A stretch of 24,089 bases of DNA from Anaerolineae bacterium (GCA_027021705.1 JALUTT010000153.1:1-24089); one strand, 5' to 3'. Positions 675 to 19,907 are shown, counted from the stretch's first letter. Program-made: numbers and translations. The notes: a model not told the origin generated them from the sequence alone.

Positions 675-1979
675 ATGCGAGGATCAAGGGAAACCGAGAC
701 GCCATATCGTGAGGCCGTGCCCCAGACCTGGTCCACCGGTCCTGGGGACGAGGACCTGCAGGTCACCATCTGCGGGGGGGGCAATGCCGCCCATCTGTTG
801 GCCGGCCTGCTCTCCACCCGTCCGGGACTGCGGGTCAACGTTTACGCCCCCTACGGCGATGAGGCCCAGCGGATGCGCCAGGGCATCGCCCGTCGTGGGG
901 GGATCGTCGTGGTTGCCGCCGAGGAGCGGTGGGCGGGACGTCCCCACCGGGTCAGTGCCGATCCAGCCCAGGTGGTGCCCGGTTCGGGGTTGGTGATGCT
1001 GGCGCTGCCCGCCTTCGCCCACGAGATCGTCCTGCGCGACATCGCACCCTACCTGGACGAGGGGGCCTGGGTGGGCGCCCTTCCCGCTCGGGGCGGCTTC
1101 GATTGGTGCGCCTTTGACGTCCTGGGGGAGAAAGGGAGTTCGCTGATCCTCTTTGGCCTGCAGACACTGCCCTGGGCTTGCCGCCTCCGCACCTACGGCG
1201 AGGAGGTGGCGCTCCTGGGGACGAAGAAGCGGGTGGACCTGGCCACTTGGCCGCCCCACTATGCCGGCAAGGTAGCCCGTCGGCTGAGCGACCTCCTGGG
1301 GGTGCGCCTGCAGCCCATCCCCAACTTCCTGAGCATCACGCTGGCCAACACCGGGCAACTGATCCACCCCGGTGTGATGTACGGGATGTTCCGGAATTGG
1401 GATGGTCACCCCTACGCCAAGGCCCCCCTCTTCTACCAGGCCGTGGACGGCCCCACTGCCCAGATCCTGCAGCAGCTGAGCGACGAGGTCCAGACCCTGC
1501 GGGAGGTGCTGGAGCACCGCTTCCCCCATCTGGACCTCTCGGCGGTGCGCCCCTTGGACGAGTGGCTGCGGGAGTCGTACCGGGACACCATTACCGATCC
1601 CTCGACGCTCCAGAGCTGCCTGGTCACCAACCGCAGCTACGCCGGCCTCAACGTTCCGATGCGCCGCGCCGATGACGGGCTGGTGCCGGACTTCCGGGCC
1701 CGCTACCTCTCGGAGGACGTGCCCTACGGCCTGGTCGTCACCCGGGGCATCGCCGAACTGGCCGGCGTCGCCACGCCCACAATGGACCAGGTGATCGGCT
1801 GGGCCCAGGCCCGTCTTGCCCGGGAGTACCTGGTCAACGGCCACCTGCAGGGGCGGGACCTGGGGGCTTCCCGTGCGCCCCAGCGCTACCATCTGGAGAC
1901 GCTGGAGGCGGTGGTCAAGGGTCAGGAAGAGGTGCCCTCTTACGTCCTCCCGGCGGCCCGGGTGCCGGTTCAAGCCTGA
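675..1979 (+). CDS. NAD(P)-dependent opine (octopine/nopaline) dehydrogenase family protein, 434 aa
   Basis: Rossmann motif VTICGGGNAAH. Family motifs QTLPWACR, LIHPGVMYG, PLFYQ and RYLSEDVPYGLV...TPTMDQVIGWAQ. Start moved from 612 to ATG 675, which follows RBS AGGAGGTG (661-668). Confidence 0.9.
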   Translation: MRGSRETETPYREAVPQTWSTGPGDEDLQVTICGGGNAAHLLAGLLSTRPGLRVNVYAPYGDEAQRMRQGIARRGGIVVVAAEERWAGRPHRVSADPAQVVPGSGLVMLALPAFAHEIVLRDIAPYLDEGAWVGALPARGGFDWCAFDVLGEKGSSLILFGLQTLPWACRLRTYGEEVALLGTKKRVDLATWPPHYAGKVARRLSDLLGVRLQPIPNFLSITLANTGQLIHPGVMYGMFRNWDGHPYAKAPLFYQAVDGPTAQILQQLSDEVQTLREVLEHRFPHLDLSAVRPLDEWLRESYRDTITDPSTLQSCLVTNRSYAGLNVPMRRADDGLVPDFRARYLSEDVPYGLVVTRGIAELAGVATPTMDQVIGWAQARLAREYLVNGHLQGRDLGASRAPQRYHLETLEAVVKGQEEVPSYVLPAARVPVQA

Positions 1980-2015: not shown

Positions 2016-2055
2016 CGGGGAGGGGCGCCGACCGTGCCCCTCCCCGATAACTTTT
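2016..2055 (+). terminator. GC-rich hairpin downstream of the opine dehydrogenase gene (weak terminator or mRNA stabiliser)
   Basis: CGGGGAGGGGC (2016-2026) and GCCCCTCCCCG (2036-2046) form a perfect 11-bp stem, followed by ATAACTTTT. Confidence 0.45.
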
Positions 2056-2173: not shown

Positions 2174-2241
2174 GGCTGAATAGATACGGCGCGAATTGGC
2201 TTCTTGTGCCTTGCAACTTGCAACCAAAACGAGGTAGGACG

Positions 2242-5200
2242 ATGACGAAGGACAACGGACGACCCAAGGAAGCAGCAGCAGCCGAGGATAAGCCTCCAGA
2301 ACCCGGACGGAAGCGGCGGGTGATGGTAGGGGCCATCGGCAAGTGCGTGCACAACCTGGGCGTGGAAACCTTTGCCGACTGGATGGAGGACCAGGGGCTG
2401 GGCTACGTCTCCGTCAAGCTGGGGCCGGCCGTTCCCATCCGGGAGGTGATCAACAAGATTCGGGAGGCCCGGCCCGAGGTGGTGGGCGTCTCGATGCGCC
2501 TGGGCGACCTGCACGTGGACCGACTGATCGGAGAGTTCATCGAGCTGGCGACCCGGTACGGTCTGCACCCCCGCGATAGCGGCATCCGCTACGCCTTCGG
2601 CGGGCTGCGGCCGGCGGCCAACGTGGTGCGGGCGATGACGGGGTTGCCTCTAGAGCCGGATCGCTTCACCCGCGAGGAGGAGCAGCATTACGACCTGGAG
2701 GCGCTGGCCGAGGCCTACCGGGACCGGACCTCCTTCCAAGGCTTCTTCGAACTGGTGGCCGATGACTTCATCACGATGGAAGAGCTAGAGCGCTTCGCCC
2801 ACGAGCTGCCGCCGGCCCACCAGGAGGGGCCGATGGCCTGGTCCGACAACCTGGTCGAGCGCATCCGGCAGGTGCAGGAGCGGGAGAGCCGCCCCGCCAT
2901 CCGGGCCCACATCGGCATCGCGGCTGAGACGATCGGCCCTACCATTGAGGCCGTCCAGAAGCTGGCCGACGCCGGCGTGCTGGAGATCGTCTCCCTGGCT
3001 CCCGACCAGACCTCCCAGGAGCTCCTGGCCAAGTTCATCCGGGGCGAGGAGGACCCAGACCGCTACCTGGCTGGCCAAGGTGGGGCTCCCATCCGCAGTG
3101 TCGAGGACCTGAAGCGGCTGAAGGCAGCCACCCGGCGGGGCAATCACCCCCTCACCCGCATCTACACGGGCACCGACGAACTGCTGGAGCTGGCGAGGCT
3201 GTGGGAGGAGCACCTCAACATCGCTTTCCCGGCGGTGCCCATCTTCTTCTACAACGAACTGGACGGGCGGGGACCGCTCAGCATCCGGGACGCCTTCGAC
3301 GAGCACTTCCGCGTCATCGAGTGGTGGGCTCAGCAGGGCAAACCCCTGGAGATCAACGATCCCCACCAGTGGGGGCTCCGCTACGCCAGCGACGACATGC
3401 AGGTCACCGACCACGTCCTCTGCGCCGTGATCGCCCTGAAGAAAGGGATCCGCCACTACGTGATGCAGATGATGTTCGAACTGCCGCCGACCATCTCCGC
3501 CTTGGACGATCTGGCGAAGATGAAGGCGGCCTACGAGCTGATCGAGCCCCTGACCCGCCACTTCGACTTCCACATCATCCGGCAGACCCGCTCCGGCCTG
3601 CCCAGCTTTCCCCCCAACCTGAACCAGGCCAAGGGCCACCTCGCCTTCGGCGTCTATACCCAGCTCTACATGGAGCCCGACATCCTCCACGTCGTCACTC
3701 ACTCGGAGGCCCACCATGAGGCGACGGCCGAGGACATCATCGAGGCCTGCGAGATCGTCCACCAGGTTTGCTGGGACTTCGCCAAAGGGGCCGTGCCCGA
3801 CATCTGGGCCGATCCGGTCCTGAAAGCTCGCAAGCGGGAACTAAAGGAAGGGGCGATGTACAATCTGCTCCACGGAGCCATCCTGGGCGGTTACGTCGGC
3901 CCCATCACGCCGGAGACCTTTTGGGCCTGGGCCCGGGAGCCGGAGGAGGACCCGGAGCGGAACTTCGGGACGATGCTTCTCAGCTTCATAGACGAGGCCA
4001 ACTACCTGACGGGCACCTGCGGCCTCATCGCCGCCGATACGCTGGACCTGGGGCTCCAGATCGGCCTCTACCAGGGGCCGCACATCACCGTGGTGGACCG
4101 ACGCTACGAGCTGGCGGGGGGCTGCCGCACCAAGGTGGTGGATGGGATGTGTCGCATCGAGGCTTGGAACGGCATCCCGGTGGGCAGCGAGTTCGAGCGG
4201 GTGGACCTGGTGCGCCAGCACTTCCCCTGGTACTTCGACCGGGAGATCAGCCACGCCGAACACGTCAGTTTCATCGCCGACGACGCCGAGGTGGAGCGGC
4301 TGGACGAGGAGACGGTGGCCCAGTTCCGTAGAGGGATCGGCGTCACCGGGCTGGCCGACGAGCGGGTCCTGGTGGTGGATTTTGGAAGCACCTTCACCAA
4401 GATCGGCCTCTTTGACACCCGGCAGGAGACCTTCGAGTTGCGCTACGTGCCCACCACCGTGGAGGACATCCGCATCGGGCTGGCCCACGGGCTGGGGGTG
4501 CTGGAGGCCTGTCGGGAGCGGGGCGACTGGAAGCCGCTGGCCCAGAAGATGGACGAGTTCGCGGTGCGGCTCCCCTGCTCCAGCGCCAAGGGAGGGCTCA
4601 AGGTCGCCACCGTGGCCTTGGTCAAAGAGGAGTCCGGCTTCGCCGCCGAGCTGGCAGCCCTGACGGCGGGGGCCAAGCTGGTGGGCAGCTACGAGGGGCC
4701 GTTGACGCCGGAGCAGGCCCGGGCCATCTACGAGGTGGACCAGCCGGAGATCATCCTGCTGGCCGGCGGCACCGACCAGGGGGGCGACGCCGAGACCCAA
4801 CTCCACAACGCCCGGATGCTGGCGGAGGCGGCCCGCTACGCCACCTACACCGACTACGGCGTGCCGGTGGTCTACGCCGGCAACCAGGACGTGCGCGGAC
4901 AGGTGGAGCGCATCTTCCGCGCCCACGGTGTGGACGTCCGCGTGACGCCCAACGTGATGCCGGAGATCAACGAGTTCCACATTGAGGCGGTCAACGAGGC
5001 CCTGCGGGAGCTCTTCCAGACGGTGATCATCCGGGCCAAGGGGTTCGATGTCGTCGAGGCCTATATGGATGCTCCCTTCATCCCCACCCCTCGGGCGGCC
5101 TTCCTGGGGATCAACCTGCTGGCCCAAGGGTATGGCAGCGAGGAAGGGTTGGGCAACATCCTGGCCCTGGACATCGGCGGCGCGACGACGGACTTCTACT

Positions 5201-5970
5201 CCCACGTTGCCGACAACCCCCTCTACCTCTTCCCCGGCGACGATCCCCGACGCCGGGTGAAGCGGACGATCCTGAAGACGCCCAACACGCCTCTGGTCTA
5301 CCGGCGGGTGGAGGGGAAGTACGGCCTGAGCTACAACGCCGAGAACGTGAAGGAGTTGAGCCGCTTCCAGGACGGGTCGCTGGCCCGGGACCTGAGCCGC
5401 TACCTGGCGCGCCGGTTCCCTCTGGAGTTCGGGCCGGGTCACGACCAGTTCCGCCGCTTTGTGCGCAGCGACAACGGCTCGTACCGGGTGGACCTGGACC
5501 GTTACCTGACCTGGCTCAGCGAGAACCCCCACACGGTGCCCCGGACGGCGTTGGAGAACGCCGCCCGTTCCTTCCTGGCCCGGGAGATCATGGCGGTGAC
5601 GACGCGCAAGCACGCCGGACGGGTGGAGGAGACGGAGGCCTACTTCTTCCAGTACGGCGTCAACTTCTTCAACCAGCCGGTGACGGTCCTGCTCATCGGC
5701 GGGACCATCTACCACAAGTACCGCGATCGGGAGCCGGGCTATGAGGAGGACCTGGCCCTCATCGCCGGCGGCGTGCTCTACAATCCCGAGGAACCGGAGG
5801 TGCTGCGCCCCACGGGGCCGGTGCTGATGGATGCCCGCTACCTGGTCAGCATCCTGGGCGGGCTCTACGGACGGGTGAACCCGGAGCAGGCGCTGCGGGT
5901 GATGAAGCGGGAGCTGGTGCCGCTGGAGGTGGGAGTGCCGGTGCAGGAGCGGGTTCCTGTAGCGGCGTAG
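2242..5970 (+). CDS. Cobalamin-dependent mutase-like protein fused to a GlmL/MutL-family (ASKHA ATPase) reactivase domain, 1242 aa
   Basis: N-terminal B12-binding Rossmann domain: CVHNLG (2344-2361, a DxHxxG variant), VGVSMRL, YAFGG. Central alternating beta/alpha region, probably a TIM barrel. C-terminal GlmL/MutL motifs DFGSTFTK (4378-4401), CSSAKGGL, ILLAGGTD, VYAGN, NVMPE, IPTP, DIGGATTD and RRVEG. Start ATG 2242 follows GAGGT. The ORF-track extension to 1816 overlaps the upstream gene and a repeat. Confidence 0.85.
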   Translation: MTKDNGRPKEAAAAEDKPPEPGRKRRVMVGAIGKCVHNLGVETFADWMEDQGLGYVSVKLGPAVPIREVINKIREARPEVVGVSMRLGDLHVDRLIGEFIELATRYGLHPRDSGIRYAFGGLRPAANVVRAMTGLPLEPDRFTREEEQHYDLEALAEAYRDRTSFQGFFELVADDFITMEELERFAHELPPAHQEGPMAWSDNLVERIRQVQERESRPAIRAHIGIAAETIGPTIEAVQKLADAGVLEIVSLAPDQTSQELLAKFIRGEEDPDRYLAGQGGAPIRSVEDLKRLKAATRRGNHPLTRIYTGTDELLELARLWEEHLNIAFPAVPIFFYNELDGRGPLSIRDAFDEHFRVIEWWAQQGKPLEINDPHQWGLRYASDDMQVTDHVLCAVIALKKGIRHYVMQMMFELPPTISALDDLAKMKAAYELIEPLTRHFDFHIIRQTRSGLPSFPPNLNQAKGHLAFGVYTQLYMEPDILHVVTHSEAHHEATAEDIIEACEIVHQVCWDFAKGAVPDIWADPVLKARKRELKEGAMYNLLHGAILGGYVGPITPETFWAWAREPEEDPERNFGTMLLSFIDEANYLTGTCGLIAADTLDLGLQIGLYQGPHITVVDRRYELAGGCRTKVVDGMCRIEAWNGIPVGSEFERVDLVRQHFPWYFDREISHAEHVSFIADDAEVERLDEETVAQFRRGIGVTGLADERVLVVDFGSTFTKIGLFDTRQETFELRYVPTTVEDIRIGLAHGLGVLEACRERGDWKPLAQKMDEFAVRLPCSSAKGGLKVATVALVKEESGFAAELAALTAGAKLVGSYEGPLTPEQARAIYEVDQPEIILLAGGTDQGGDAETQLHNARMLAEAARYATYTDYGVPVVYAGNQDVRGQVERIFRAHGVDVRVTPNVMPEINEFHIEAVNEALRELFQTVIIRAKGFDVVEAYMDAPFIPTPRAAFLGINLLAQGYGSEEGLGNILALDIGGATTDFYSHVADNPLYLFPGDDPRRRVKRTILKTPNTPLVYRRVEGKYGLSYNAENVKELSRFQDGSLARDLSRYLARRFPLEFGPGHDQFRRFVRSDNGSYRVDLDRYLTWLSENPHTVPRTALENAARSFLAREIMAVTTRKHAGRVEETEAYFFQYGVNFFNQPVTVLLIGGTIYHKYRDREPGYEEDLALIAGGVLYNPEEPEVLRPTGPVLMDARYLVSILGGLYGRVNPEQALRVMKRELVPLEVGVPVQERVPVAA

Positions 5971-5992
5971 AGGTCGAGAGGGGGCCATCACG

Positions 5993-6028
5993 GAACAGGC
6001 CGGGCGTGAGCGCCCGGCCTGTTCTCTT
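5993..6028. terminator. Hairpin between convergent genes, likely (bidirectional) terminator
   Basis: Perfect 14-bp stem GAACAGGCCGGGCG (5993-6006) / CGCCCGGCCTGTTC (6011-6024) with TGAG loop, followed by TCTT on the + strand. Confidence 0.75.
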
Positions 6029-6035
6029 AAGGCGG

Positions 6036-6965
6036 TCATCGGCCTGCGGGCTGCCACTGGGGATGGATGTCATCGGCGGGGTGGTTGGTGAGGCGGATTG
6101 GGTTGGAACCGTCAGCATTCATCACGTAGATCTCGGGGTTGCCATCCCGGTCGGAGACGAAGACGATCTTCGAGCCATCGGGGGACCAGGCGGGATCGCC
6201 ATCGTTGGCCGGATTGCGGGTGATGTTGGTCAGCGTCCCATCGGCCAGATCGAGCAGGTAGATCTCCATATTGCCCTCCCGGTCGCTCATGAAGGCGATC
6301 TTTGAGCCGTCAGGCGACCAGGCCGGGTTCATATCCTGAGCCGGGTTGTTCGTCAGGTTGACTTCGGTGTGGTCAGGCCCCAGGACGTAGATCTCGGGAT
6401 TCCCATCGCGAACGCTCATGAAGACGATGGATTGCCCATCGGGAGACCAGGACCCGTACATATCGAGCCCCAGTTGGCTGGTGCGGCGGGTGAGGTCACG
6501 GCCATCAGCCCCCACCGTCCACAGCTTCGTGTTGGCCGTCACCTCGATGCTCCCCCCTTCGGTGGGCTCGTAATAGGTGCGGTTGGAGGAGAAGAGGATC
6601 TGGGAGCCGTCGGGCGACCAGGCCGGCACCACGTTGAACCCGATCCCATCGGTTAGGCGGGTGGTCTCCGTCCCATCGGCCTTCATCACGTAGATGTCCG
6701 GGGAGCCCTCCCGTTCCGAGGTGAAGGCGATCCGCTGACCATCGGGTGCCCAGCTCGGTGTCCCGTCATAGGCTGGGTTGTTGGTCAGGTTCACCAGGTT
6801 GGAACCGTCGGCGTCCATGATGTAGACCTCGGCGTTGCCATCGCGGTAGGACTCGAAGGCGATCTTGCCGAGGGGGACCGTTGAGGAGCGGCATCCCACC
6901 GCCGTGGAGAGCAGGGCCGCGGTCAGCAGGAGGGTGCAGATTTGGAGGCATCGTCGAATGTCCAT
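6036..6965 (-). CDS. TolB-like beta-propeller (PD40 repeat) lipoprotein, 309 aa
   Basis: Six repeats of the type PxWSPDGxxIxFxSxRxGNxEIY. Signal peptide ends in lipobox AVGC. Start ATG 6965 follows GGGAG. It lacks the TolB N-terminal domain, so no gene symbol is given. Confidence 0.85.
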   Translation of the reverse strand: MDIRRCLQICTLLLTAALLSTAVGCRSSTVPLGKIAFESYRDGNAEVYIMDADGSNLVNLTNNPAYDGTPSWAPDGQRIAFTSEREGSPDIYVMKADGTETTRLTDGIGFNVVPAWSPDGSQILFSSNRTYYEPTEGGSIEVTANTKLWTVGADGRDLTRRTSQLGLDMYGSWSPDGQSIVFMSVRDGNPEIYVLGPDHTEVNLTNNPAQDMNPAWSPDGSKIAFMSDREGNMEIYLLDLADGTLTNITRNPANDGDPAWSPDGSKIVFVSDRDGNPEIYVMNADGSNPIRLTNHPADDIHPQWQPAGR

Positions 6966-7040
6966 AGGGCTCCCTAAAACGGTTCGGCCCGGCGGCCTGC
7001 CGGGCGCCCGGGCCGGAGGGTGGCTCGACGGGGATAGGGA

Positions 7041-7148
7041 TACCCTCCCGCAGGTCACCGGTCGAGGGCGCTTTCAGCCCCGATGGGCTGTTTGAAGCAC
7101 GGTTTCGCGTCGGAAACGCACCTAACCTGCGGGAGGGTGAACAGTTAC
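7041..7148 (-). repeat. Inverted-repeat element, copy 2 (97-bp core 7042-7138)
   Basis: Same 14-bp inverted repeats (7042-7055, 7125-7138) and 69-bp spacer. Near-identical reverse complement of 2066-2173. Confidence 0.85.
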
Positions 7149-7161
7149 GAAGGTCGTGGGG

Positions 7162-8196
7162 CTACTCCCCCCGTAGTCGGGGGTCGAAGGCGTCGCGGAG
7201 GCCATCGCCCAGGAAGTTGAAGGCCAAGGTGGTGAGCGTCAGCGCCAGGGCCGGCACGAAGACTTCGTGGGGGTAAGTCCGCAGCGCCTGATAGGTCTCC
7301 GAGATCATCAGCCCCCAACTGGGGGTGGGCGGGTTGACGCCCAGGCCGATGAAGCTGAGGAAGGCTTCCAGAAAGATGTAGCCGGGGATGGCCAGGGTCT
7401 CCGCCACGATGCAGGGGCCCAGGATGTTGGGCAGCAGATGGCGGAAGATGATGCGCCGGTTGGTGGCTCCGACGGCCCGGGCTGCCTCGACGAATTCCTT
7501 TTCCTTGTAGGAGAGGGTCTGGCCGCGGGCGATGCGGGCCATACCCAGCCAGTTGACCAGGCCCAGGGCGATAAAGAGGAAGAACATCCCGCCCATCGCC
7601 TTGTCAATGTTGATGAAGAGATTGGCGATCCCCCCACCGCCACCTCGCCGGGAGAGGGCCTTGAAGTAGACCTGCATCAGGATGATGAAGATGATGAGAG
7701 GGAAGCCATAGAGGAAATCCACGAAGCGCATCATCAGGTTGTCCACGCGGGTGCTGGAGTACCCTGAGATGAGGCCGTAGGTGATGCCCACGACGAGGCT
7801 CACGAAGGCCGCCACGAAGGCCACGGAGAGCGACACCCGGGTGCCATACAGCGTTCGGCTCAGGATGTCACGGCCCAGGTAATCCACGCCCAGGAGGTAG
7901 AACTTGCCGTCCTCGGTCCGGGTGAAGAGACCGGTATCGTGGTAGCGGAAGTTGACCTCGGCGAAGTGATAGGGAGCCAGGAGGGGACGGACCTCTCCAC
8001 CGGTGAAGAAGGCGATGACGGTGGTATCGGCGAAGATGGCGACTAGAACGAGGAGGATGAGGAAGATGCCGCTGATGACGGCGACGCGGTTCTTCAAAAG
8101 CTGCCGGCAGGCATCGGCCAGGGGACTGCGCCCACGCCGGACGGCCTCCTCCAATCGCAATTGAGCTACCTCTTGCGGTGTCGCTTCAGCAGCCAT
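7162..8196 (-). CDS. oppC: Oligopeptide/nickel-family ABC transporter permease (OppC type), cluster A
   Basis: LGVDYLGRDILSR, EAA loop EFVEAARAVGA, RHLLPN, LSFIGLG..PPTPSWG, C-terminal GDGLRDAFDPR. Confidence 0.92.
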   Translation of the reverse strand: MAAEATPQEVAQLRLEEAVRRGRSPLADACRQLLKNRVAVISGIFLILLVLVAIFADTTVIAFFTGGEVRPLLAPYHFAEVNFRYHDTGLFTRTEDGKFYLLGVDYLGRDILSRTLYGTRVSLSVAFVAAFVSLVVGITYGLISGYSSTRVDNLMMRFVDFLYGFPLIIFIILMQVYFKALSRRGGGGGIANLFINIDKAMGGMFFLFIALGLVNWLGMARIARGQTLSYKEKEFVEAARAVGATNRRIIFRHLLPNILGPCIVAETLAIPGYIFLEAFLSFIGLGVNPPTPSWGLMISETYQALRTYPHEVFVPALALTLTTLAFNFLGDGLRDAFDPRLRGE

Positions 8197-8237
8197 AGCG
8201 CCTCCTGCCTTGAGGGAGAATGGCTTCTCTCACGAGC

Positions 8238-9212
8238 CTACTCGTAGCGGATGCGGGGATCCAGCCAGGCGTAGGTGATGTCCACCGCCAGGTTAGCGAC
8301 AACCAGCAGCACGGAGTAGAGCAGGGTCGTCCCCATCACGATGGGGTAGTCCCGGTTGTTGACGCTGTCCACGAAGTGCTGCCCCATACCGCTGATGCCG
8401 AAGATCTGCTCAACCACGAAGGTCCCTGTGACGATGGCGGCGAAGAGAGGGCCGAGCACGGTGACGACAGGGATGAGGGCGTTTTTCATCGCGTGGACGA
8501 TGATGATGGTGCGCTCTCGCAGCCCCTTGGCCCGGGCCGTGCGGATGTAGTCCTCCCGGATAACCTGCAGCAGGCTGGCTCGCGTCAGCCGGGCGATGCT
8601 GGCCGAGAGCCCGGTCCCCAGAGCCACGGTAGGAAGCACCGCGTGTTTCCAGAAGTCTGAGGTCATCGGAGGGATGAACCCCAGGTAGAACTGGGTGTAG
8701 TCGGCTCCCCACCGGGCGACCGGGAACCAGCCCAGCTTGAGGCCGAAGGCCCAGATGAGGAAGGGGGCGAGGACGATGTTGGGGATGGAAACGCCTAGGA
8801 TGGCGATGAAGGAGCTAAAGTAGTCCACCCAGGTGTTGTGCTTGAGGGCCGCTAGGGTACCTGCTGGTATCCCGATGATCAGGGCCAAGGCTAGGGAGAG
8901 AATGCCCAACTGGAAGGAGACCGGGAAGGTCTGCTTGATGATGTCGTTGACGGTCAGGGAGCGGTAGCGGAAGGAGGGACCCAGGTCTCCGTGCAGGAGG
9001 TCCCACAGCCAGGCAGCGAACTGCTTCCAGAGGGGCCAGTCCAGGTGGTACTTGCGTTCCAGATTCGCCACCACGCTGGGGGGCAAGCTACGGTCTCCGG
9101 CGAAGTCGAAAGGGCCTCCTGGCATCGCTCGGGCCAGCACAAAGGTGACCAGCGCGATAGCGAACAGCACAGGGATGAACCACAAGATGCGTCGGACGAT
9201 ATATCGGGTCAT
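8238..9212 (-). CDS. oppB: Oligopeptide ABC transporter permease (OppB type), cluster A
   Basis: MTRYIVRR start, PGGPF, GDLGPSF, EDYIRTARAKGL, VVEQIF, LDPRIRY. Confidence 0.92.
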   Translation of the reverse strand: MTRYIVRRILWFIPVLFAIALVTFVLARAMPGGPFDFAGDRSLPPSVVANLERKYHLDWPLWKQFAAWLWDLLHGDLGPSFRYRSLTVNDIIKQTFPVSFQLGILSLALALIIGIPAGTLAALKHNTWVDYFSSFIAILGVSIPNIVLAPFLIWAFGLKLGWFPVARWGADYTQFYLGFIPPMTSDFWKHAVLPTVALGTGLSASIARLTRASLLQVIREDYIRTARAKGLRERTIIIVHAMKNALIPVVTVLGPLFAAIVTGTFVVEQIFGISGMGQHFVDSVNNRDYPIVMGTTLLYSVLLVVANLAVDITYAWLDPRIRYE

Positions 9213-9250
9213 TCGGTCCTCGCCTCGTCAAGGGGGGGCAGGCAGGTGAG

Positions 9251-9286
9251 CGGTGGCTGTGGGTCCATCAAGACCCACAGCCACCG
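9251..9286 (-). other. Strong intercistronic hairpin 3' of oppA (mRNA stabiliser or partial terminator)
   Basis: Perfect 15-bp stem CGGTGGCTGTGGGTC / GACCCACAGCCACCG with a 6-nt loop. No U-tract on the - strand. Confidence 0.7.
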
Positions 9287-9300
9287 ATAGGGTGCGGTTG

Positions 9301-11226
9301 CTACTTGCCCATAGCCGCCTTCTTGGCCTCCCAGTCAATCTTCCACTTCCAGATGTGGAGCCGACCGGGGTCACCCCAGACCCGATCCAGCCACGGCTTG
9401 CCGACGGCGACACGGGTGTAGTAGTAGATGGGGGCGATGCCTACGATCTCGTCCACGAAGAGCCGCTCGGCCTCCTTGTAGAGCTCCTTCTGCTTCTCCG
9501 GATCGGGCTCGACCTGGGCCTGCTTGGTCAGCTGGGCGAACTTCGCCACCGCCTCGCCAACCTGGGGGTCATCCTCGCTGATGAGAGGCTCGTTGGCCCC
9601 CTCGGTGGGATGGAAGACCTCGTGGATCCAGTTGTTGGCGTGCGGGTAGTCGGCGCACCAGCCCAGCCGATAGACGTTGGGCTTGTCCTCCAGCGGGCTT
9701 TCCCGATCAATGGTCTTCAGGTAGACCCGCCACTCCTGGGTCTCGATGGTGACGTTGATCTTCGGGTAGGCGCTCTTCCACATTGCCTGGATGGCCTGGG
9801 CGATCCGGGCGTGCCCCTCGCTGACGTTGTGCATCAGCAGGATGTCCAGCCCCTCGCCGTCGGGGTAGCCGGCCTCCTCCAGGAGCTTCTTGCCCTCGGC
9901 AACGGCCTTCTCGTAGCCCCAACCGCCCATATCCTCCGGCAGTGCCCACGGAGCAATGTCGGGATCGAGGGCCGGGGAGCCGAAGTTCAGGGGGTTGGTG
10001 AAGGCGTTGGCCGGGATCTGCCCACCCTTGGTCACCGTCTCGACCAAGGTCTTGCGGTCAATGCCCATCGAGAGCGCCTTGCGCACCCGGACATCATCCG
10101 TGGGCGGCTTCTTGGTGATGAAGCCGTAGTAGTAGGTGCAGTTGATGGGCGTGTTGACGAACTCCTTGCTGAGCTGCGGGTCCGCCTTCACCCGCTCGAT
10201 CTGGTCCAGCGGCACACCTGCCGTGTCCAGCTCGTTGTCCTCGTAGAGGGCGAAGGCCGTCGAGGCTTCTTCGATCATCACACCGTAGACCTTCTCGATG
10301 TTCCCGGCCTCGTCGGCAAGCTCCTCCCAGCCGTACCACAGCGGGTTCTTCTCCAAGGTCAGGTGATCGCCGTGGACCCACTCGGTCATCACGTATGGAC
10401 CGTTGGTCTGGATGAAGCCCGGCTCGATCCAGCGCTCACCCTTCTCCTCGATGATCCACTGGGGCATCGGGCGGGCGATCCACATGCTGGCGATCTGCGG
10501 GAAGAAGCCGGCTCCGTACTCCAGGGTGAACTCTACGGTGAAATCATCCACGGCGCGGACCCCCACAGCATCGTAGAGCTCCTGGAAGTTCTCCGCCTCC
10601 GGATCGGCCATGTTCAGGTCCGCGCAGCCCTTGACAATGTAAAGCACATAGGCGTAGTCGGAGCCGGTGCGCGGGTCGCAGGTGCGCTTCACGCCGTAGA
10701 CCACGTCGTGGGCGTTCACAATGCGGACGTTGCCTTCATCGTCAGTGACTTCCTCGACCTGACCGGTGGTGGGGTCGTAGCGCACCCACGGAACGTCGTT
10801 GCGCATCTTGAAGGTCCAGACTGTCCGGTCCTCGTTGGAAGACCACTCGGTGGCCAATTCGGGGATGGCCTCCATCGTCTCGTCATCGAGGTCCGTCAAG
10901 CCCAGGAAGAGCTCCTCGATGACGCCCACCGAGGTGGTGTCCGTCGCCAGAGAGGGGTCCGCCGTCGGGGGCTCGGTGCCCCAGTTGATGTTCAGGGTCA
11001 CCTTCTCCTCGCCGGGGACCGGGGTCGGGGTGACCTCGACGATCTTCTCGACCTCTTTCTCCACGATCTTGGTGACGACCACTGTGGCACCTTCCTTCTC
11101 TACCACCTCGGTGACCACAACGGTCTCCTTGACGACCTGGGGCGTAGGCTGAGCGCAGGCGGAGAGGACCACGCTGGCGATGACCACGAAAGCCCAGAGG
11201 GTCAACCACCTTCTTCGAGCAAGCAT
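9301..11226 (-). CDS. oppA: Oligopeptide ABC transporter substrate-binding lipoprotein (family 5), cluster A
   Basis: Lipobox LSAC, V/E/K-rich linker, PELATEW, TNGPY, CTYYY, RVRKALS..IDR, RLGWCADY. RBS GGAGGAGG. Confidence 0.92.
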   Translation of the reverse strand: MLARRRWLTLWAFVVIASVVLSACAQPTPQVVKETVVVTEVVEKEGATVVVTKIVEKEVEKIVEVTPTPVPGEEKVTLNINWGTEPPTADPSLATDTTSVGVIEELFLGLTDLDDETMEAIPELATEWSSNEDRTVWTFKMRNDVPWVRYDPTTGQVEEVTDDEGNVRIVNAHDVVYGVKRTCDPRTGSDYAYVLYIVKGCADLNMADPEAENFQELYDAVGVRAVDDFTVEFTLEYGAGFFPQIASMWIARPMPQWIIEEKGERWIEPGFIQTNGPYVMTEWVHGDHLTLEKNPLWYGWEELADEAGNIEKVYGVMIEEASTAFALYEDNELDTAGVPLDQIERVKADPQLSKEFVNTPINCTYYYGFITKKPPTDDVRVRKALSMGIDRKTLVETVTKGGQIPANAFTNPLNFGSPALDPDIAPWALPEDMGGWGYEKAVAEGKKLLEEAGYPDGEGLDILLMHNVSEGHARIAQAIQAMWKSAYPKINVTIETQEWRVYLKTIDRESPLEDKPNVYRLGWCADYPHANNWIHEVFHPTEGANEPLISEDDPQVGEAVAKFAQLTKQAQVEPDPEKQKELYKEAERLFVDEIVGIAPIYYYTRVAVGKPWLDRVWGDPGRLHIWKWKIDWEAKKAAMGK

Positions 11227-11320
11227 TTCCTCCTCCTCCTTTGGGTTACAGGGTAGGCGAAAGGAACAGCAGCAAGGCGACTATCCTCGGCTCGGTCCTT
11301 TCCCGCGATAGTGAGCAGGC

Positions 11321-11333
11321 ATCACCTCCTTTC
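11321..11333 (-). promoter_or_regulatory. Stand-alone extended Shine-Dalgarno-like element upstream of oppA
   Basis: The - strand reads GAAAGGAGGTGAT, complementary to the conserved 16S 3' tail (AUCACCUCCUUUC). It lies ~95 nt upstream of oppA, which has its own RBS. Confidence 0.55.
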
Positions 11334-11388
11334 CTGGTTTGTGCTCAGACTGTGCGCATCGGGTTTTCCGGGGGCCACCGGGCTGGTC

Positions 11389-12381
11389 TCACCCGGCCAG
11401 GTGGCAGGCGACCCGATGGCCTGAGGCCACCTCTTTCAGTTCCGGTTCCACCTCGAAGCAGACCTCCATCGCCACCGGACAGCGGGTGCTGAAGTTGCAG
11501 CCCCGAGGCGGATTCGCCGGACTGGGGACATCGCCTTCCAGGATGATTCGCTCCCGCTTTTCCTCGATGACCGGATCCGGGATCGGCACCGCCGAGAGCA
11601 GGGCTTGGGTGTAAGGGTGCAGGGGGTTGGTGTAGAGGCTGTCGCGGTCCGTCAATTCGACGATCTTTCCCAGGTACATCACCGCCACCCGGTCGCTGAT
11701 GTGGCGCACCATGCTCAGGTCGTGGGCGATGAACAAGTAGGTCAGCCCAAACCGCTCCTGCAACTCCTCCAGCAGGTTCACCACCTGGGCCTGGATGGAG
11801 ACATCCAACGCCGAGATCGGCTCGTCGCAGACGATGAAGTCGGGCTGCAAGGCCAACGCCCGAGCGATTCCGATCCGCTGGCGTTGGCCGCCGGAGAACT
11901 CGTGGGGGTAGCGGTTGATGAAGTAGGGGTTGAGGCCCACCAGTTGGAGGAGTTCCTGAACCCGCTCCCGCTTTTCTTTGCCGCGTGCCACCCCGTGCAC
12001 CTCCAGGGGTTCGGCGATGATGTTGCCCACGGTCATCCGAGGGTTGAGGGAGGCATAGGGGTCCTGGAAGATCATCTGCATCCGGCGGCGCATCCGCCGG
12101 AGGGCGTTGCCCTTGAGTTGGACGAGGTTGACGCCGTCGAAGAAGACCTGGCCGGCGGTGGGGCGGTAGAGTTGGAGGATGGTCCGGCCGGTGGTGGACT
12201 TGCCGCAGCCGCTTTCTCCCACCAGGCCCAGGGTCTCGCCCCGGAAGATCTCGAAGGAGATGCCGTCCACGGCCTTGACATCGCCGATGTGGCGTTGGAA
12301 GACGATGCCCCGGGTGATGGGGAAGTACTTTTTCAGCCCTTCGACGCGGACGAGGACATCACGACCGTTCTTATCGGACAC
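11389..12381 (-). CDS. oppF: Oligopeptide/dipeptide ABC transporter ATP-binding protein (OppF type), cluster A
   Basis: Walker [10 protein letters not shown], signature FSGGQRQR, Walker B FIVCDEP, HPYT, Cys-rich C-terminal domain. GTG start. Confidence 0.93.
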
Positions 12382-13369
12382 GGGACCACACCCCTTCCGT
12401 TTGGGTCTTTTCCCAGCAGGCGACCCGGTGGGCGTCGCCGACGGGTTCCAGGGCGGGATTCTCGTGGAGGCAGCGCTCGGAGGCGTACCGGCAGCGGGGG
12501 GCGAAGGGGCAGCCTGGGGGAGGGGCGACGAGGTCGGGGGGCTGCCCTGGGATGGAGAGGAGGCGGGTGCCGGGCGCTTCGTCGAGGCGGGGGAGGGAGC
12601 CGAGGAGGCCGATGGTGTAGGGGTGGCGGGGGGAGCCGTAGAGTTCCTTGACGGGGGCCTCCTCGATGATGTAGCCGGCGTACATCACGATGACCCGCTG
12701 GGTGAGCCGAGCGACGACGCCCAGGTCGTGGGTGATCCAGATGACGGCCATACCCAGCTTTTCCTGGAGGCGCTTGACCAGGTCAATGATCTGGGCCTGG
12801 ATGGTGACGTCGAGGGCGGTGGTGGGCTCGTCGGCGATGAGGAGCATCGGGTTGCAGGAGAGAGCCATCGCGATCATCGCCCGCTGACGCATTCCGCCGG
12901 AGAACTGGTGGGGGTAGTCGTCGAGGCGCTCCCGCGCCTGGGGGATGCCGACCATCGTGAGGAGTTGGGCGGCGCGGTCGCGGGCCTCCTTGTCGCTCAT
13001 CCCTTGGTGGAGCTTGAGGGCTTCGGTGATCTGGAAGCCGACGGTGAGGACGGGGTTGAGGGAGGTCATCGGGTCTTGGAAGACCATAGCGATCTCGGCC
13101 CCTCGGACCTGGCGCATCTCCTCGTCGCTGAGGCGGAGGAGGTCGCGTCCGTAGAAGAAGACCTGACCGTCTACGATCTTGCCTGGGGGGTCGGGGATGA
13201 GGCGCATCAGGGAGAGGACGCTGACGCTCTTGCCGCAGCCACTCTCGCCGACGATGCCGAGGGTCTCGCCCTCGTCCAGAGAATAGGAGATGCCGTTGAC
13301 GGCGTGGACGACGCCGTCCTGGGTGTAGAAGCGGGTGGTGAGATTGCGAACCTCCAGAAGGCTGGCCAA
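12371..13369 (-). CDS. oppD: Oligopeptide/dipeptide ABC transporter ATP-binding protein (OppD type), cluster A
   Basis: [50 protein letters not shown]. Probable TTG start at 13369 after GAGGAGG. Confidence 0.93.
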
Positions 13370-13540
13370 CCTGGTTCCTCCTCGGTGGTGGGTGGTCGGG
13401 CCGTCACCGCGAAGCACGCTAGCTCAGGTGGACCGATGATGACCGCAGATAGGCATCCGTGTGGAGAAATCGAGGCTTCCCTTCTGGATTAGGGAAGTTG
13501 CTACACCAGGTCCGGCCCGGTCGGTCTCAGTGGCACGATT

Positions 13541-13595: not shown

Positions 13596-15053
13596 TCATC
13601 GCCATTCCTGGCCTGTGAGGGCTTTGTACGCCGCTCGAACCTGCACATCGGGGATCTCGCGGAGGCCCCATGTCCCCAAGGGCACCCGGATGTCCGGCTG
13701 GACGCCCACGCCCTCCAATGTGCTCCCATCGGGCAACTGGAGCGTGGAGACGGCCAGGCGGATCAGGGAGCCGTCGGGGAGGCTGAAGCCGGTGATCCCC
13801 TCGGTGTTGCCGGCCGTCGGCATCCCGACCAGGACGGCTCGCCCCGACTGTTGCATCGCCGTGGCGAAGTACTCGGAGGCGCTGTGGCTGTTTCCATCAA
13901 TGAGCACGGCCACCGGCGTTGTCTCGTTCCAGCGCACCGGCCCCCGAATGCGGTAGATGGTCTGGGTCGCATCCTTGCGCAAGGGACCGACCTTGCCGAA
14001 GACCCCGCTGGTGAAGATGGCGATGGAGCGGTCGGCATTCCCTCCTGGGTTGTGGCGGATGTCCACGATCAGGCCATCCAACGGCTGTTCCTCTTCCAGC
14101 AACTGGATGGCCTGGAGGATGTTCACGTCGGCGTCTCCGCCGAAGTCGGGCACCCGGATGTAGCCGATGCGAGGGTTCTCGCTCAGCAGGCCATACCGCC
14201 ATCCATCGCAGCCGGCCACCGCCCCAAAGCGCAGGCGGATCTCCTCGGGATCTCGGTCCGGCCCCCGCTGCACCGTGAGCGTGACCGCCTCGTGATCTCC
14301 GTACAACGCCTCACGGATAGAGGGCCAGTCGAAGCCTTCTTCGGAGCGGACCACGGGCTGGCCGTTGATGGCGAGGACCACGTCGCCCCGCTGAAGGCCG
14401 GCCTGGGCCGCCGGCCCGATCTCGCAGACGTACCAGATCATCAACTGCTCGTCCTCCCGCGCCGGCCAGATGATCAGCCCGGCTGCAGGGCGGCCCGTCC
14501 GCTCTTCCGGCGGTGTCAACTCGAATTCGACGGCGAAGCGGTCAGGGCGGACGAACCGACTGTGGTCATCGCGCAGTTCGGCGATGAAGGCTTCCATCAG
14601 GTCCCAAAAGGCCTCCTGGCTCTGAACCGCTTCCACCTGGGGCAGGTACGCCTCCCGCACTGCGTCCCAGTCCACGCCGTTGAAGTTGTCCCGCACGTAG
14701 TTGTCCTTGACGATCTGCCACGCCTTCTCGAAGATCGCCACGTAGTCGCCGGCCGCTTCAGGCCCGCCGACGGACGTCGGTGTGGGCGTCCGGGTGGGGA
14801 TGACCACGGCGGTGAGGAGGGCCTGGGCCGTCGCCCGAGGACCGGTGAGCGGTTTGGGCGTCGGGGTGTCCGTTGGGCCTGTCGGTGCAGGGGTGGCCGT
14901 CGCCTCCGGGGTGGCGATGGGAGCCGTCGCCGTCTCCGGGACCATCTCAGCCGTGGGAGAGGGGGGAGCCTCCGTTGGCGTTGCCTTGCAGCCTCCAACC
15001 ATCAGCACCAGCACGCCTCCCCATATCACAATGAAAGCAGCCAACCGTTTCAT
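13596..15053 (-). CDS. S41-family peptidase lipoprotein with PDZ domain, 485 aa
   Basis: Lipobox VGGC and P/T/A-rich linker. FNGVDW, DDHSRF, PDZ motif PAAQAGLQRGDVVLAING, IGYIRV, DIRHNPGG, SHSASE, EGVGVQPDI. RBS GAGGAGA. Confidence 0.88.
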   Translation of the reverse strand: MKRLAAFIVIWGGVLVLMVGGCKATPTEAPPSPTAEMVPETATAPIATPEATATPAPTGPTDTPTPKPLTGPRATAQALLTAVVIPTRTPTPTSVGGPEAAGDYVAIFEKAWQIVKDNYVRDNFNGVDWDAVREAYLPQVEAVQSQEAFWDLMEAFIAELRDDHSRFVRPDRFAVEFELTPPEERTGRPAAGLIIWPAREDEQLMIWYVCEIGPAAQAGLQRGDVVLAINGQPVVRSEEGFDWPSIREALYGDHEAVTLTVQRGPDRDPEEIRLRFGAVAGCDGWRYGLLSENPRIGYIRVPDFGGDADVNILQAIQLLEEEQPLDGLIVDIRHNPGGNADRSIAIFTSGVFGKVGPLRKDATQTIYRIRGPVRWNETTPVAVLIDGNSHSASEYFATAMQQSGRAVLVGMPTAGNTEGITGFSLPDGSLIRLAVSTLQLPDGSTLEGVGVQPDIRVPLGTWGLREIPDVQVRAAYKALTGQEWR

Positions 15054-15158
15054 AGCACTCTCCTCCTCGTTGCATCCACAGTCGTATGCGCGGTTGTACC
15101 CGCGCGGATGATGGACCGATGGAGATCAGCCCCATCACCCTGTTCCTCTCGCTCCCCC

Positions 15159-16943
15159 TCAGAAGGCTGCGTAGACCAGGACGCCGTAGACCGCCAGGGT
15201 GAGCACCCCGTCAACGGCAGCGTAGATGAACAGGAAGAAGAGGAGCGATGGTTGCTGACGACGGTAAGTATACCCCCAAGCGGTCAGGAAGGCCAGGCCC
15301 GTGAGCAACGGAGGCACGCCCCAGCGCAGGATGGGGGCCAGCCAGGGGGGGATGAAGGGGATCCAGGCGGAGAAGGGCACGTAGTGGCGTATGCCGGGCA
15401 GGATGGCCAGCTTCCCAGCCCAGTAGGCGGCCAGGGCGAGGGTCAAGCTGATGAGGACACCGGGGCTGAGCAGCCGTTCCTCCCTCCGCCAGATCGCCGA
15501 GGTCAGACCCAGCAGGAGCATCGGGGGGATCAGCCAGACGAAGATGAGGGGGAAGAGAAGGGCTCCTGTCAGCAGGCCGAAGAGGGTCTCGACGCTGAGC
15601 CGTCCCACGTCCTCGGGGGTCAGTGGGCGCAGGGCCGACCGCATCTCGGGAGCTGTGCCGGCGAGGTAGACGGGGAACCCCGACGGCTCCCTTCCCTCCA
15701 GCCAGGTTGCGTAGAGGTAGCCTTCGGAATCCCTCGACAGCGCCGGGTGTTCCGACCGGACGGAGGTGAAGCTGAGAAGTTGATAGGCCACGGGGGCGCC
15801 CTGTTGGAAGAAGAGGAGCCCCACCTGGCCTCGCTCCTTGCGCATCAGGTAGGGCAGCCGGGCGTGGAAGGCGATGGCCAACTCCCGACCGGGGGAAGGG
15901 ACAACGGCCACTTCGGTCACATAGGCGACGCCCCGCTGTCCGGTCCCCCAGGGCACCCGGTCGCCGGCTTTCAGTTCTCCCCCGGGGAAGGGGCGGTAGG
16001 TGAGATGGTAGTCGGCGGGGACCGTCAGCGCCTGGGCGGGGGATGCCCGGTCGGGCTGACCGGGAGGGAAGTGGACGTAGCTGGTCTCGGCCCGGCCCGC
16101 CTCCATGCCTGTGCGCACGATCACCGTCCAGAAGAGGTAAACCCCCTCCTGGCTCACCCCCAGCCGGGGGCCTTCCAGCACGCCGCCGACCCCCAGGGAG
16201 ATCTCGCGGACCGAGACGGGCTGGACCGGGTGGTCGGCCTGCCGAGGATAGGCAGCGTAGAGCAACGCGATGGTGCCGTAGCCGGGGGGGTAGTGCAACC
16301 AGACGCTGTGCAGGGTGCCCTCGGCATCGTACTGGAGATCGGGCCGAATCCCCTCGGGGTCCATCAGCGTCGGCTCTCCCTCCGGGTTGTCGGGCGGGAG
16401 GGCGTAGAGGCCCGGTGACCGACGGGATCCCGAATACCAGACGGCGATGCGCCCTTCGGAATCGCTGGCGACGTCGTAGGCCCCTACCCGTACCTCACCG
16501 GAGAGGAGAGCCGGGGGCTCCAGCAGCTCCCCATCGGCGGTCAGCCGGGCGTGATAGAGCCGCCAATCGCTCAGCCAAAAGAGATGAAGCCCCTCCCCCG
16601 ACCAGAGCAGACGGGGTTGGTCCAGCCACTTCAGGGTGATCGCTTCGTAGGTGCGATCCCACAGGACCTCGGCCCGTCGGTCCAGGGCGATCACACGGGG
16701 GTGAAGGCGATCCTCCCGGCCTCCCGTCAGCAGGAGGTACAACCTGCCCTCACCATCGGTGGCGATGGGCACGGGATCGCCGGTTTGGGTGTGACCGACC
16801 CATTGGGCTCGGCTCCATCCAGGGGCGTTGAGCCACAACCGCTCCGGCAGCCCGGCGCAGGCCGTCAGGAGCAACGTCAGGAGCAGAACACCGACCCCGG
16901 CGAGGAAGGGGGGGGCTGTGGGGCAGCCGCTTGATGGTTTCAC
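15159..16943 (-). CDS. Hypothetical membrane protein: N-terminal lipoprotein-like signal, large extracytoplasmic beta-rich domain, ~5 C-terminal TM helices
   Basis: Co-directional ORF with GC3 bias, LLLTLLLTAC lipobox-like segment and hydrophobic C-terminus. Start uncertain (GTG 16943 after GAGGT, or ATG 16991). Confidence 0.7.
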   Translation of the reverse strand: MKPSSGCPTAPPFLAGVGVLLLTLLLTACAGLPERLWLNAPGWSRAQWVGHTQTGDPVPIATDGEGRLYLLLTGGREDRLHPRVIALDRRAEVLWDRTYEAITLKWLDQPRLLWSGEGLHLFWLSDWRLYHARLTADGELLEPPALLSGEVRVGAYDVASDSEGRIAVWYSGSRRSPGLYALPPDNPEGEPTLMDPEGIRPDLQYDAEGTLHSVWLHYPPGYGTIALLYAAYPRQADHPVQPVSVREISLGVGGVLEGPRLGVSQEGVYLFWTVIVRTGMEAGRAETSYVHFPPGQPDRASPAQALTVPADYHLTYRPFPGGELKAGDRVPWGTGQRGVAYVTEVAVVPSPGRELAIAFHARLPYLMRKERGQVGLLFFQQGAPVAYQLLSFTSVRSEHPALSRDSEGYLYATWLEGREPSGFPVYLAGTAPEMRSALRPLTPEDVGRLSVETLFGLLTGALLFPLIFVWLIPPMLLLGLTSAIWRREERLLSPGVLISLTLALAAYWAGKLAILPGIRHYVPFSAWIPFIPPWLAPILRWGVPPLLTGLAFLTAWGYTYRRQQPSLLFFLFIYAAVDGVLTLAVYGVLVYAAF

Positions 16944-17003
16944 AAAGACCTCGGAGGTCCAAGCCCGTTCTCTAAGGGGCCTCCTGGCCATCTGACGGTG
17001 TCC

Positions 17004-18794: not shown

Positions 18795-18868
18795 ATTCCT
18801 ACCTTATCATCTTGGTCGCTCTGGAGATCGAAATCCTGCCTCGGGGTCCCCTTCGTCGGCACGCCCGC

Positions 18869-19840: not shown

Positions 19841-19907
19841 ACGTCCTCCGAATCACTGACTGGAAACGGCCCTCCGCCTATGGGCACAGGTGGCGGTCAG
19901 GCCGGAA

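Follow-up and report, generated by a model that had tools for sequence, protein, structure and literature searches.

A conserved glutamate-mutase-type B12 enzyme with a built-in GlmL ATPase, encoded beside an opine dehydrogenase gene in Anaerolineae

Introduction

Few kinds of adenosylcobalamin-dependent isomerase are known, and unfamiliar radical chemistry has come to light with every addition to them. Here we describe a gene from an Anaerolineae bacterium (GCA_027021705.1), located on a 24,089-nucleotide stretch of DNA (JALUTT010000153.1:1-24089; hereafter, the window), that encodes a B12-binding domain, a barrel domain and a GlmL/MutL-type ATPase in one polypeptide and lies beside a gene for an opine dehydrogenase. 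We conclude that the protein is genuine and conserved, an uncharacterised variant on glutamate-mutase-type B12 enzymes that carries its own GlmL ATPase; what it does we infer from comparison.

The closest known system is glutamate mutase, composed of GlmS and GlmE and accompanied by GlmL/MutL (C. cochlearium, PDB codes 1cb7, 1ccw and 6h9e; E. coli O157:H7, ECs_0762-0764). The three modules are alike in both systems, although in glutamate mutase they are three proteins, whereas here they are joined in a single chain in the order S-E-L. The genetic neighbour differs as well, being an opine dehydrogenase here, as against methylaspartate ammonia-lyase within the E. coli O157 cluster. The fused isobutyryl-CoA mutase IcmF (4xc6 and others) is likewise an adenosylcobalamin mutase joined to a nucleotide-dependent accessory module, with the B12 domain followed by the barrel in a similar order. 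IcmF, however, combines a MeaB-type G-protein with a methylmalonyl-CoA-mutase-type barrel for CoA esters, in place of the ASKHA ATPase and GlmE-like barrel of the present protein, in which no MeaB/ArgK G-protein domain was matched by Pfam or NCBIfam models. Single chains of a GlmE-like barrel and a B12 domain occur in 2-methyleneglutarate mutase and in engineered GlmES, neither of which has a GlmL domain as far as we are aware. No published description of the fused architecture, or of its pairing with an opine dehydrogenase, was found in the full-text literature (subscription-only papers lay outside the search), so that within this scope the architecture does not appear to have been characterised already.

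Domain organization of the fused protein

The plus-strand reading frame is open from a TTG at position 1816 to the stop codon at 5968-5970. The ATG at 2242 is the likely start, because it is preceded by GAGGTAGG at 2231-2238, because relatives align from about residue 1-24, and because an earlier start would make the frame run into the 3' part of the gene next to it. From this codon the fused gene (2242-5970, plus strand) encodes 1242 residues with no internal stop, as the initial annotation of this DNA had claimed. The domain coordinates proposed in that annotation were right to within a few codons, and the acidic linker sequence DDAEVERLDEE and both phosphate motifs of the ATPase were found where it had placed them (Table 1).

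The central domain resembles the barrel of glutamate mutase E

The 583 residues between the B12 and MutL domains returned no Pfam match, even at an E-value of 10. The N-terminal part of the protein was compared at the level of fold and of family profiles, using a 52-row family alignment of the B12 and middle domains (A1). The AlphaFold2 model built on A1 has a mean predicted local distance difference test score (pLDDT) of 90.7, and its best Foldseek match is glutamate mutase E (6h9e, chain B; E 9.6e-15). With VIA-align, residues 198-656 superpose on the GlmE chain of 1cb7 (chain B) with a Z-score of 28.9 and an rmsd (root-mean-square deviation) of 3.0 over 379 residues. Lysine 5,6-aminomutase (Z 27.6) and ornithine 4,5-aminomutase (25.3) follow, then the methylmalonyl-CoA mutases (about 20) and IcmF (17.7).

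A second alignment (A2) was assembled from the GlmE gene of E. coli O157:H7 and seven Chloroflexota GlmE genes. Comparison of A1 with A2 by hhalign gave a probability of 98.1% (E 6.7e-14, 380 columns), against only 45% when the single E. coli GlmE sequence was used. Because of this profile match, we regard the barrel as a true but remote homologue of GlmE, judged from sequence. The initial annotation had allowed that the central domain might not be a B12-enzyme barrel at all; the Foldseek, VIA-align and hhalign results together show that it has this fold, and glutamate mutase E is its nearest solved fold by the structural comparison that the annotation had recommended. The Pfam model Met_asp_mut_E (PF06368) has no match in the fused protein even at an E-value of 10, and no canonical GlmE was found in this genome. 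The same model is matched by three of 20 distant family members that were scanned (18-27.5 bits), of which one, P0131, lies above its cut-off (27.5 bits versus 26.6).

The glutamate that is invariant in GlmE (E329 in E. coli), which we take to contact the adenosyl ribose, aligns with E489 of the fused protein and is a glutamate in 48 of the 52 rows of A1. The residues that presumably bind glutamate in C. cochlearium GlmE are R66, R100, R149, E171 and Y181, equivalent to R67, R99, R148, E170 and Y180 in E. coli. In the A1-A2 alignment they correspond to H223, Q259, Y308, P330 and L340, so that none of the five is kept. Together with the failure of the Pfam model, this bears out the initial annotation, in which no GlmE motifs were recognised in the central domain. 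Since none of these residues is retained, the protein is probably not a glutamate mutase.

The family has a set of near-invariant residues of its own: R221/H223, S251/Q259, R306/Y308, D341-G342-R343, E370/N372, Q409, R450 and H483/E489. In the model they sit at or just after the barrel strands, and the strand ends are the usual position of the active site in a barrel of this kind. We read this pattern as pointing to the same cofactor chemistry acting on a different substrate, and the many conserved basic residues may indicate a substrate with several carboxylates.

Three further proteins of Chloroflexota touch on the diversity of GlmE-like barrels. The genes at L079: 1495-2934, L081: 1375-2811 and L086: 1185-2741 score 496-530 bits on the Pfam GlmE model, yet their products are without the Arg-His and the Glu that E. 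coli has in its RHGT and YEGGG segments. A GlmL gene lies next door in L079 and L081. These three proteins may represent a further subfamily of GlmE-like enzymes that acts on some other substrate.

The B12-binding domain

When the PDB was searched with the family profile, B12 domains of known structure were matched (4jgi, E 3.7e-8; 2yxb, E 5.3e-8). A search of the PDB with the single protein returned corrinoid proteins only, on residues 23-101. GlmE was absent from the PDB matches of both the single-sequence and the family-profile hidden Markov model (HMM) searches, which found B12 domains only, and for this reason the link between the barrel and GlmE needed fold search and profile-profile comparison. 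Five of the residues expected of a cobalamin-binding Rossmann domain are kept in 45-47 of the 52 rows of A1 (H37 in 46, G40 in 46, S84 in 46, L87 in 45 and G121 in 47).

The GlmL/MutL ATPase domain

The Pfam MutL family (PF13941) covers residues 709-1225 over the whole of the model (positions 1-450 of 450; E 7.5e-90; 302.3 bits versus a gathering score of 27). The domain is complete, as had been claimed for the region from about position 4360. Among NCBIfam models the top match is the GlmL equivalog NF040745, at 285.1 bits against a cut-off of 475, and TIGR01319 also falls below its cut-off (197.2 bits versus 204.05). The domain is 29% identical to GlmL of E. coli O157 (E 1e-36), with both phosphate motifs aligned, and 36-37% identical to GlmL genes that lie beside GlmE in two Chloroflexota genomes. 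The predicted structure of the domain has an ASKHA fold with a pLDDT of 79.5.

A self-reactivating enzyme, as suggested in the initial annotation, may be proposed from the homology with GlmL, a protein that is thinly characterised in its turn; in PMC4682846 the reactivating role of MutL is stated by citation only. This genome holds a second MutL-family gene (G000:C87:34472-35836; L002: 1135-2925, minus strand) of 596 residues, to which the fused ATPase domain is only 26% identical. This second gene has a C-terminal extension, and its neighbours have no Pfam matches.

The fusion is conserved and appears to have arisen once

Among the 120 best relatives found with the N-terminal 705 residues as query, 113 are 1198-1284 residues long and 74-84% identical; the other seven have 693-1040 residues. 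A scan of one genome per species gave 57 related loci, almost all labelled Anaerolineae or Chloroflexota, and the MutL part directly follows the N-terminal part in 52 of the 55 that hold both. The junction (3900-4700) is covered by Logan contigs from three runs of two hydrothermal-vent metagenome studies, which contain no indel and differ at one position (G>C at 4121). These contigs are weak independent support, as this DNA may itself have come from some of the runs. Taken together, the full-length relatives, the conserved loci and the contigs across the junction speak against an assembly error, which the initial annotation had left open, and the contigs agree with the uninterrupted frame at about 4220-4360 for which it had sought confirmation from reads.

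A search with residues 1-705 of the representatives of a 1.8-billion-protein library returned 393 hits at E <= 1e-3. These comprise fused forms of ~1230 residues and many stand-alone forms of 540-630 residues with the B12 and middle domains only. The clusters of ten stand-alone relatives are named 'hypothetical protein', with one 'methionine synthase'. As to whether homologues are normally split, the fused form is thus a conserved one, and a stand-alone form of B12 domain plus barrel exists beside it. In a maximum-likelihood tree of 56 rows a branch with support 100 sets the ten fused rows apart from all others, and with midpoint rooting they are nested among the stand-alone forms. The nesting of a single fused clade among stand-alone forms suggests that the fusion arose once. 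The fused rows diverge down to 47% identity.

The family is present in 27 of 401 sampled Chloroflexota genomes, compared with eight for canonical GlmE. Of the full-length matches in these 27 genomes only the window copy lies in a long open frame (1391 residues), the others being in frames of about 546-658 residues. The genome studied here has one fused and one stand-alone member. The latter (G000:C109:29069-30721; L074: mutase 7863-9701) consists of the B12 domain and barrel with no GlmL; a CENDH-type opine dehydrogenase gene (9772-10926) follows it, a radical-SAM gene precedes the mutase and a Nudix gene comes after. More generally, the stand-alone paralogues (~550 residues; G000:C109, L075, L076 and L077) resemble the fused protein in B12 domain, barrel, near-invariant residues and dehydrogenase neighbour; they differ in having no GlmL domain and in the CENDH-type dehydrogenase lying downstream.

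Some members of the family depart from these two layouts. On the complete chromosome of a metagenome-assembled genome (L009, CP070811.1) one in-frame stop splits the fused gene into 5956-7842 and 7846-10026 (628 and 726 residues), and locus L056 was left out of alignment A3 owing to a stop codon in its MutL part; these stops could be sequencing errors or mark decaying copies. In G362:C4, from a Chloroflexota genome, the B12 domain (48498-48947, a 184-residue frame) and the barrel (48947-50128, a 436-residue frame) occupy separate adjacent frames; either S and E are naturally separate there, or a frameshift may have parted them. Two stand-alone members, P0131 (863 residues) and P0134 (732 residues), carry an extra fused ATP-grasp domain of glutathione synthetase/RimK type and Peptidase_M15_3, a hint that the pathway may be surrounded by reactions of amino acids or peptides.

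Pairing with opine dehydrogenase genes

The gene upstream of the fused mutase encodes an opine dehydrogenase of the animal octopine-dehydrogenase type (T1). An open reading frame (ORF) finder starts it at a GTG at 612, and homology by tblastn starts near 756. Residues 4-393 align with residues 4-399 of octopine dehydrogenase from Pecten maximus (3c7a; E 1.4e-88), and the catalytic His of the HP motif and the Arg and Asp of RYLxED are kept. His212 and Arg324 are named in PMC2924402. The window enzyme is far closer to the scallop protein (301 bits) than to the bacterial CENDH/ArODH type (61 bits). The 262-nucleotide spacer between the two genes contains a GC-rich hairpin that would be terminator-like or attenuator-like; the spacer is not conserved, being about 30 nucleotides in L009.

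An opine dehydrogenase gene stands beside the mutase gene in 52 of the 57 related loci. It is a T1 gene directly upstream on the same strand in 44 and a CENDH-like (T2) gene directly downstream in seven, and in one locus the dehydrogenase lies 3 kb upstream. None was found in the remaining five, of which four have no upstream flank and one ends 129 nucleotides after the gene. In all four stand-alone loci examined a T2 dehydrogenase is the next gene downstream, followed in two of them by an asparagine-synthetase-type amidotransferase. The two dehydrogenase subfamilies, about 25% identical to each other, have both been recruited.

In L008, L022 and L018 the operon consists of an RpiR regulator, the dehydrogenase, the fused mutase, SBP_bac_5, OppB and OppC. 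As RpiR precedes and a Dpp/Opp-type importer follows the pair in most relatives, this layout suggests catabolism of an imported opine-like compound. The context of the stand-alone genes looks biosynthetic, not catabolic. No Rfam family reached its gathering score in the window; in seven related loci the only match was a SAM riboswitch (92.5 bits) at L077: 6267-6373, minus strand, just downstream of the stand-alone mutase and dehydrogenase and before the next gene on the minus strand.

Dehydrogenase specificity as a lead to the substrate

Opine dehydrogenases from hot springs were described by Telek et al. 2024 (PMC10787698). They prefer L-Asp, then L-Glu and cysteate, with pyruvate, and a double exchange, of Ala111 to Arg and of Asn198 to Gly in ArODH numbering, switches specificity. 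The same authors used mODHs to make the opine of Asp on a preparative scale. In L075 the T2 dehydrogenase carries Arg and Gly exactly at ArODH positions 111 and 198, and in a MAFFT alignment of ten mutase-linked dehydrogenases Arg and Gly occupy these columns in five of five T2 and five of five T1 sequences. The T2 partners share with mODH-45, mODH-49, mODH-582 and others (compare ArODH/CENDH, 1bg6) both long motifs and Arg111/Gly198, whereas the T1 partner in the window has Arg and Gly at the aligned columns but is of the Pecten type. A motif search of the supplementary sequences of PMC10787698 found the T2 motifs NMGAIFHP five times, PGRTCGA four times and PGRTGGA four times; from this search and from reading, these sequences look closely related to L075 and L077. 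Mutase, cobalamin, methylaspartate and gene context are not mentioned in that paper.

L-Asp is a poor substrate of the characterised enzymes (KM 24.8 mM, kcat 0.9 per second; PMC10787698). A KM of this size suggests that L-Asp is not the native substrate. The partner dehydrogenase would then handle an acidic amino acid other than aspartate, and that amino acid or its opine would be the substrate or product of the mutase.

Proposed function and its alternatives

On balance we think it probable that the fused protein is a single-chain adenosylcobalamin radical isomerase of the GlmS/GlmE lineage that has a new substrate, has acquired a GlmL-type ATPase and works with the adjacent opine dehydrogenase. 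The N-terminal Rossmann domain would hold cobalamin in the base-off/His-on state through H37, as its motif suggests. The barrel would close over the corrin, with E489 holding the adenosyl group and the substrate bound by the ring of conserved Arg, His, Asp and Glu at the strand ends. By analogy with the chemistry of the family, Co-C homolysis would lead to hydrogen abstraction and a 1,2-shift. Homology to GlmL suggests that the C-terminal domain, using ATP in cis, may free inactivated cofactor or load fresh cofactor. The adjacent dehydrogenase would most likely couple pyruvate to an acidic L-amino acid, and the mutase may make or consume an unusual acidic amino acid, or isomerise the resulting tricarboxylic opine.

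A number of observations weigh against this proposal. For the family as a whole, biochemistry is deduced by homology in every member. In the B12 domain, PF02310 matches residues 26-124 at 28.3 bits, below its cut-off of 32.1, and the His-on pattern shared with glutamate mutase has Cys here in place of the Asp of DxHxxG; this position (35 in A1) is Cys in 29 of the 52 rows and Asp in 17. By fold, lysine 5,6-aminomutase (Z 27.6) comes almost as close to the barrel as GlmE does (Z 28.9), and with none of the five presumed substrate residues of GlmE retained, the difference in chemistry could be larger than we suppose. Among solved structures the ATPase domain is nearest in fold to ATPases of the hydantoinase and acetone-carboxylase type, and a diol-dehydratase-type reactivase was absent among the 50 fold matches listed, although a relationship may exist. 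No MutL gene is present in the operon stretches of the four stand-alone loci examined. In five stand-alone genomes the only MutL homologues (open frames of 600-690 residues) are located outside these stretches, and in three of the five the distance to the mutase is 24-29 kb. Since the stand-alone loci have no GlmL in the operon, the ATPase would not be obligatory for the family. The Arg/Gly signature of the T1 dehydrogenases depends on an alignment at about 25% identity. Finally, the mutase locus in the window has neither a regulator nor a linked importer, and the two Opp systems of the window are on the opposite strand and share only about 35% identity with their operon-linked counterparts.

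A more specific proposal, which we put forward tentatively and rate well below the general one, is that the protein represents a new adenosylcobalamin enzyme class, an 'opine mutase'. The rearranged compound would be a tricarboxylic N-(1-carboxyethyl) derivative of an acidic amino acid; or else the enzyme would form or use up a branched acidic amino acid for which this opine is the sole form of existence. If this were true, the stand-alone operon (mutase, opine dehydrogenase and asparagine-synthetase-like amidotransferase) would build an undescribed small molecule, which the fused operon would import and break down to pyruvate and a common amino acid, and the fused ATPase would provide the first natural example of cis action by a B12 accessory protein of the ASKHA type.

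It is improbable, in our judgement, that the protein is an ordinary glutamate mutase, converting L-glutamate to 3-methylaspartate with its three components fused, and that the dehydrogenase condenses 3-methylaspartate with pyruvate or cleaves the corresponding opine. GlmE is indeed the best fold match and the sole mutase family found by profile, the GlmL equivalog is the top-scoring model for the C-terminal domain, and a partner signature for Asp-like acidic amino acids would suit 3-methylaspartate. None of the glutamate-binding residues is kept, however; PF06368 finds neither the protein nor any other gene product of the genome, the GlmL equivalog score is far under its cut-off, and no methylaspartate ammonia-lyase was found among the ORFs of the window.

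Still less credible is an aminomutase dependent on pyridoxal 5'-phosphate (PLP), of the lysine 5,6- or ornithine 4,5- kind, with GlmL-related accessory proteins. The barrels of these enzymes (1xrs, 8t0v and 3kow) come within about 1-4 Z units of GlmE in the superposition, their gene clusters likewise include GlmL-related proteins, and the NCBIfam model of one of these, the GlmL-related ornithine protein Or-4, matches the ATPase domain at 166.6 bits. The sequence profiles, however, link the family to GlmE and not to the aminomutases. The PLP lysine of the lysine and ornithine aminomutases we take to sit in the B12 domain, and there the near-invariant columns of A1 include no Lys that could serve; the sole near-invariant Lys, K426, lies inside a helix and not at a strand end.

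We consider it very doubtful that the protein serves in corrinoid-dependent methyl transfer, with the ASKHA domain as an ATP-driven reductive activator of the RACo or RamA kind. In single-sequence comparisons the B12 domain does match best to corrinoid proteins from methyltransferase systems (4jgi and 7xcn; MtbC, MtgC and MtaC models), and the corrinoid activator RACo (3zyy) is among the fold matches of the ATPase domain (E 2.6e-5). RACo nevertheless ranks below hydantoinase-type and sugar-kinase folds, and Pfam places the ATPase in MutL rather than in the RACo family and detects no ferredoxin or Fe-S domain. The barrel, moreover, matches radical adenosylcobalamin enzymes by both fold and profile, and the Glu aligned with the invariant Glu of GlmE is kept. 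That two genes have been joined into the long frame by an error of assembly or a spurious frameshift, as the seven short relatives and the in-frame stop of L009 might suggest, is refuted by the full-length relatives, the conserved loci, the junction-spanning contigs without indel and the long-standing divergence within one fused clade.

The radical isomerase with a new substrate, which we favour, would belong to a family that is widespread in uncultured Chloroflexota and beyond. Cofactor machinery that is kept, a substrate pocket that is replaced and the tie to an opine dehydrogenase would together point to an unknown B12-dependent pathway. The natural fusion offers a one-protein system for settling the role of GlmL/MutL, which is still poorly documented. 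Through the tie to opine dehydrogenases characterised in vitro (PMC10787698), the substrate question is directly testable.

Feature coordinates and neighbouring genes

The features of the fused gene and of the region upstream are collected in Table 1.

Table 1. Coordinates in the window of the fused gene, its domains and motifs, and the upstream features
Feature	Position	Strand	Basis or remark
Opine dehydrogenase gene, animal octopine-dehydrogenase type (T1)	750..1979	+	PF02317, E 1.7e-34
GC-rich hairpin (13 pairs) then ATAACTTTTG	2016..2046	+	pattern scan; in 262-nt spacer
Shine-Dalgarno-like GAGGTAGG	2231..2238	+	read from sequence; ends 3 nt before ATG 2242
Whole fused gene: B12 domain, GlmE-like barrel and GlmL domain, 1242 residues	2242..5970	+	
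B12-binding Rossmann domain, residues 25-133	2314..2640	+	PF02310, family profile, strands and helices of the model (E25-H133)
Counterpart of cobalamin His-on motif, C35-V-H37-N-L-G40	2344..2361	+	equivalent of DxHxxG
S84..L87	2485-2502	+	B12 domain, after CVHNLG motif
G120-G121	2596-2607	+	B12 domain, after CVHNLG motif
Connector or cap between Rossmann domain and barrel, residues 134-197	2641..2832	+	secondary structure of the model; no match of its own
GlmE-like TIM barrel, residues 198-656	2833..4209	+	VIA-align, Foldseek, hhalign, column counts
Flexible acidic linker, residues 657-708	4210..4365	+	pLDDT below 50 at residues 670-686
DDAEVERLDEE, residues 680-690	4279-4311	+	in acidic linker
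GlmL/MutL ASKHA ATPase domain, residues 709-1225	4366..5916	+	PF13941
Phosphate-1 motif DFGSTFTK, residues 713-720	4378-4401	+	
Phosphate-2 motif DIGGATTD, residues 977-984	5170-5193	+	
LLIGGT	5689-5706	+	GlmL/MutL domain

Downstream of the fused gene, protease-type genes lie among peptide transporter genes on the minus strand (6036-7058 and 13596-16991). They encode a PD40 beta-propeller protein, an S41 peptidase in which Tricorn C1 and PDZ domains are also present, and a 610-residue ORF product that has no Pfam match. Judged by these gene assignments, the surroundings can be described as a putative peptide-scavenging neighbourhood. Two parallel Opp operons occupy 7162-13417 and 17763-24089, both on the minus strand, and within them the segments 11054-13453 and 21639-24026 form a 2.4-kb duplication with 97.5% identity that covers the OppD/OppF ATPase genes and the start of a binding-protein gene. 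This could be a recent duplication, the outcome of gene conversion or an assembly effect.

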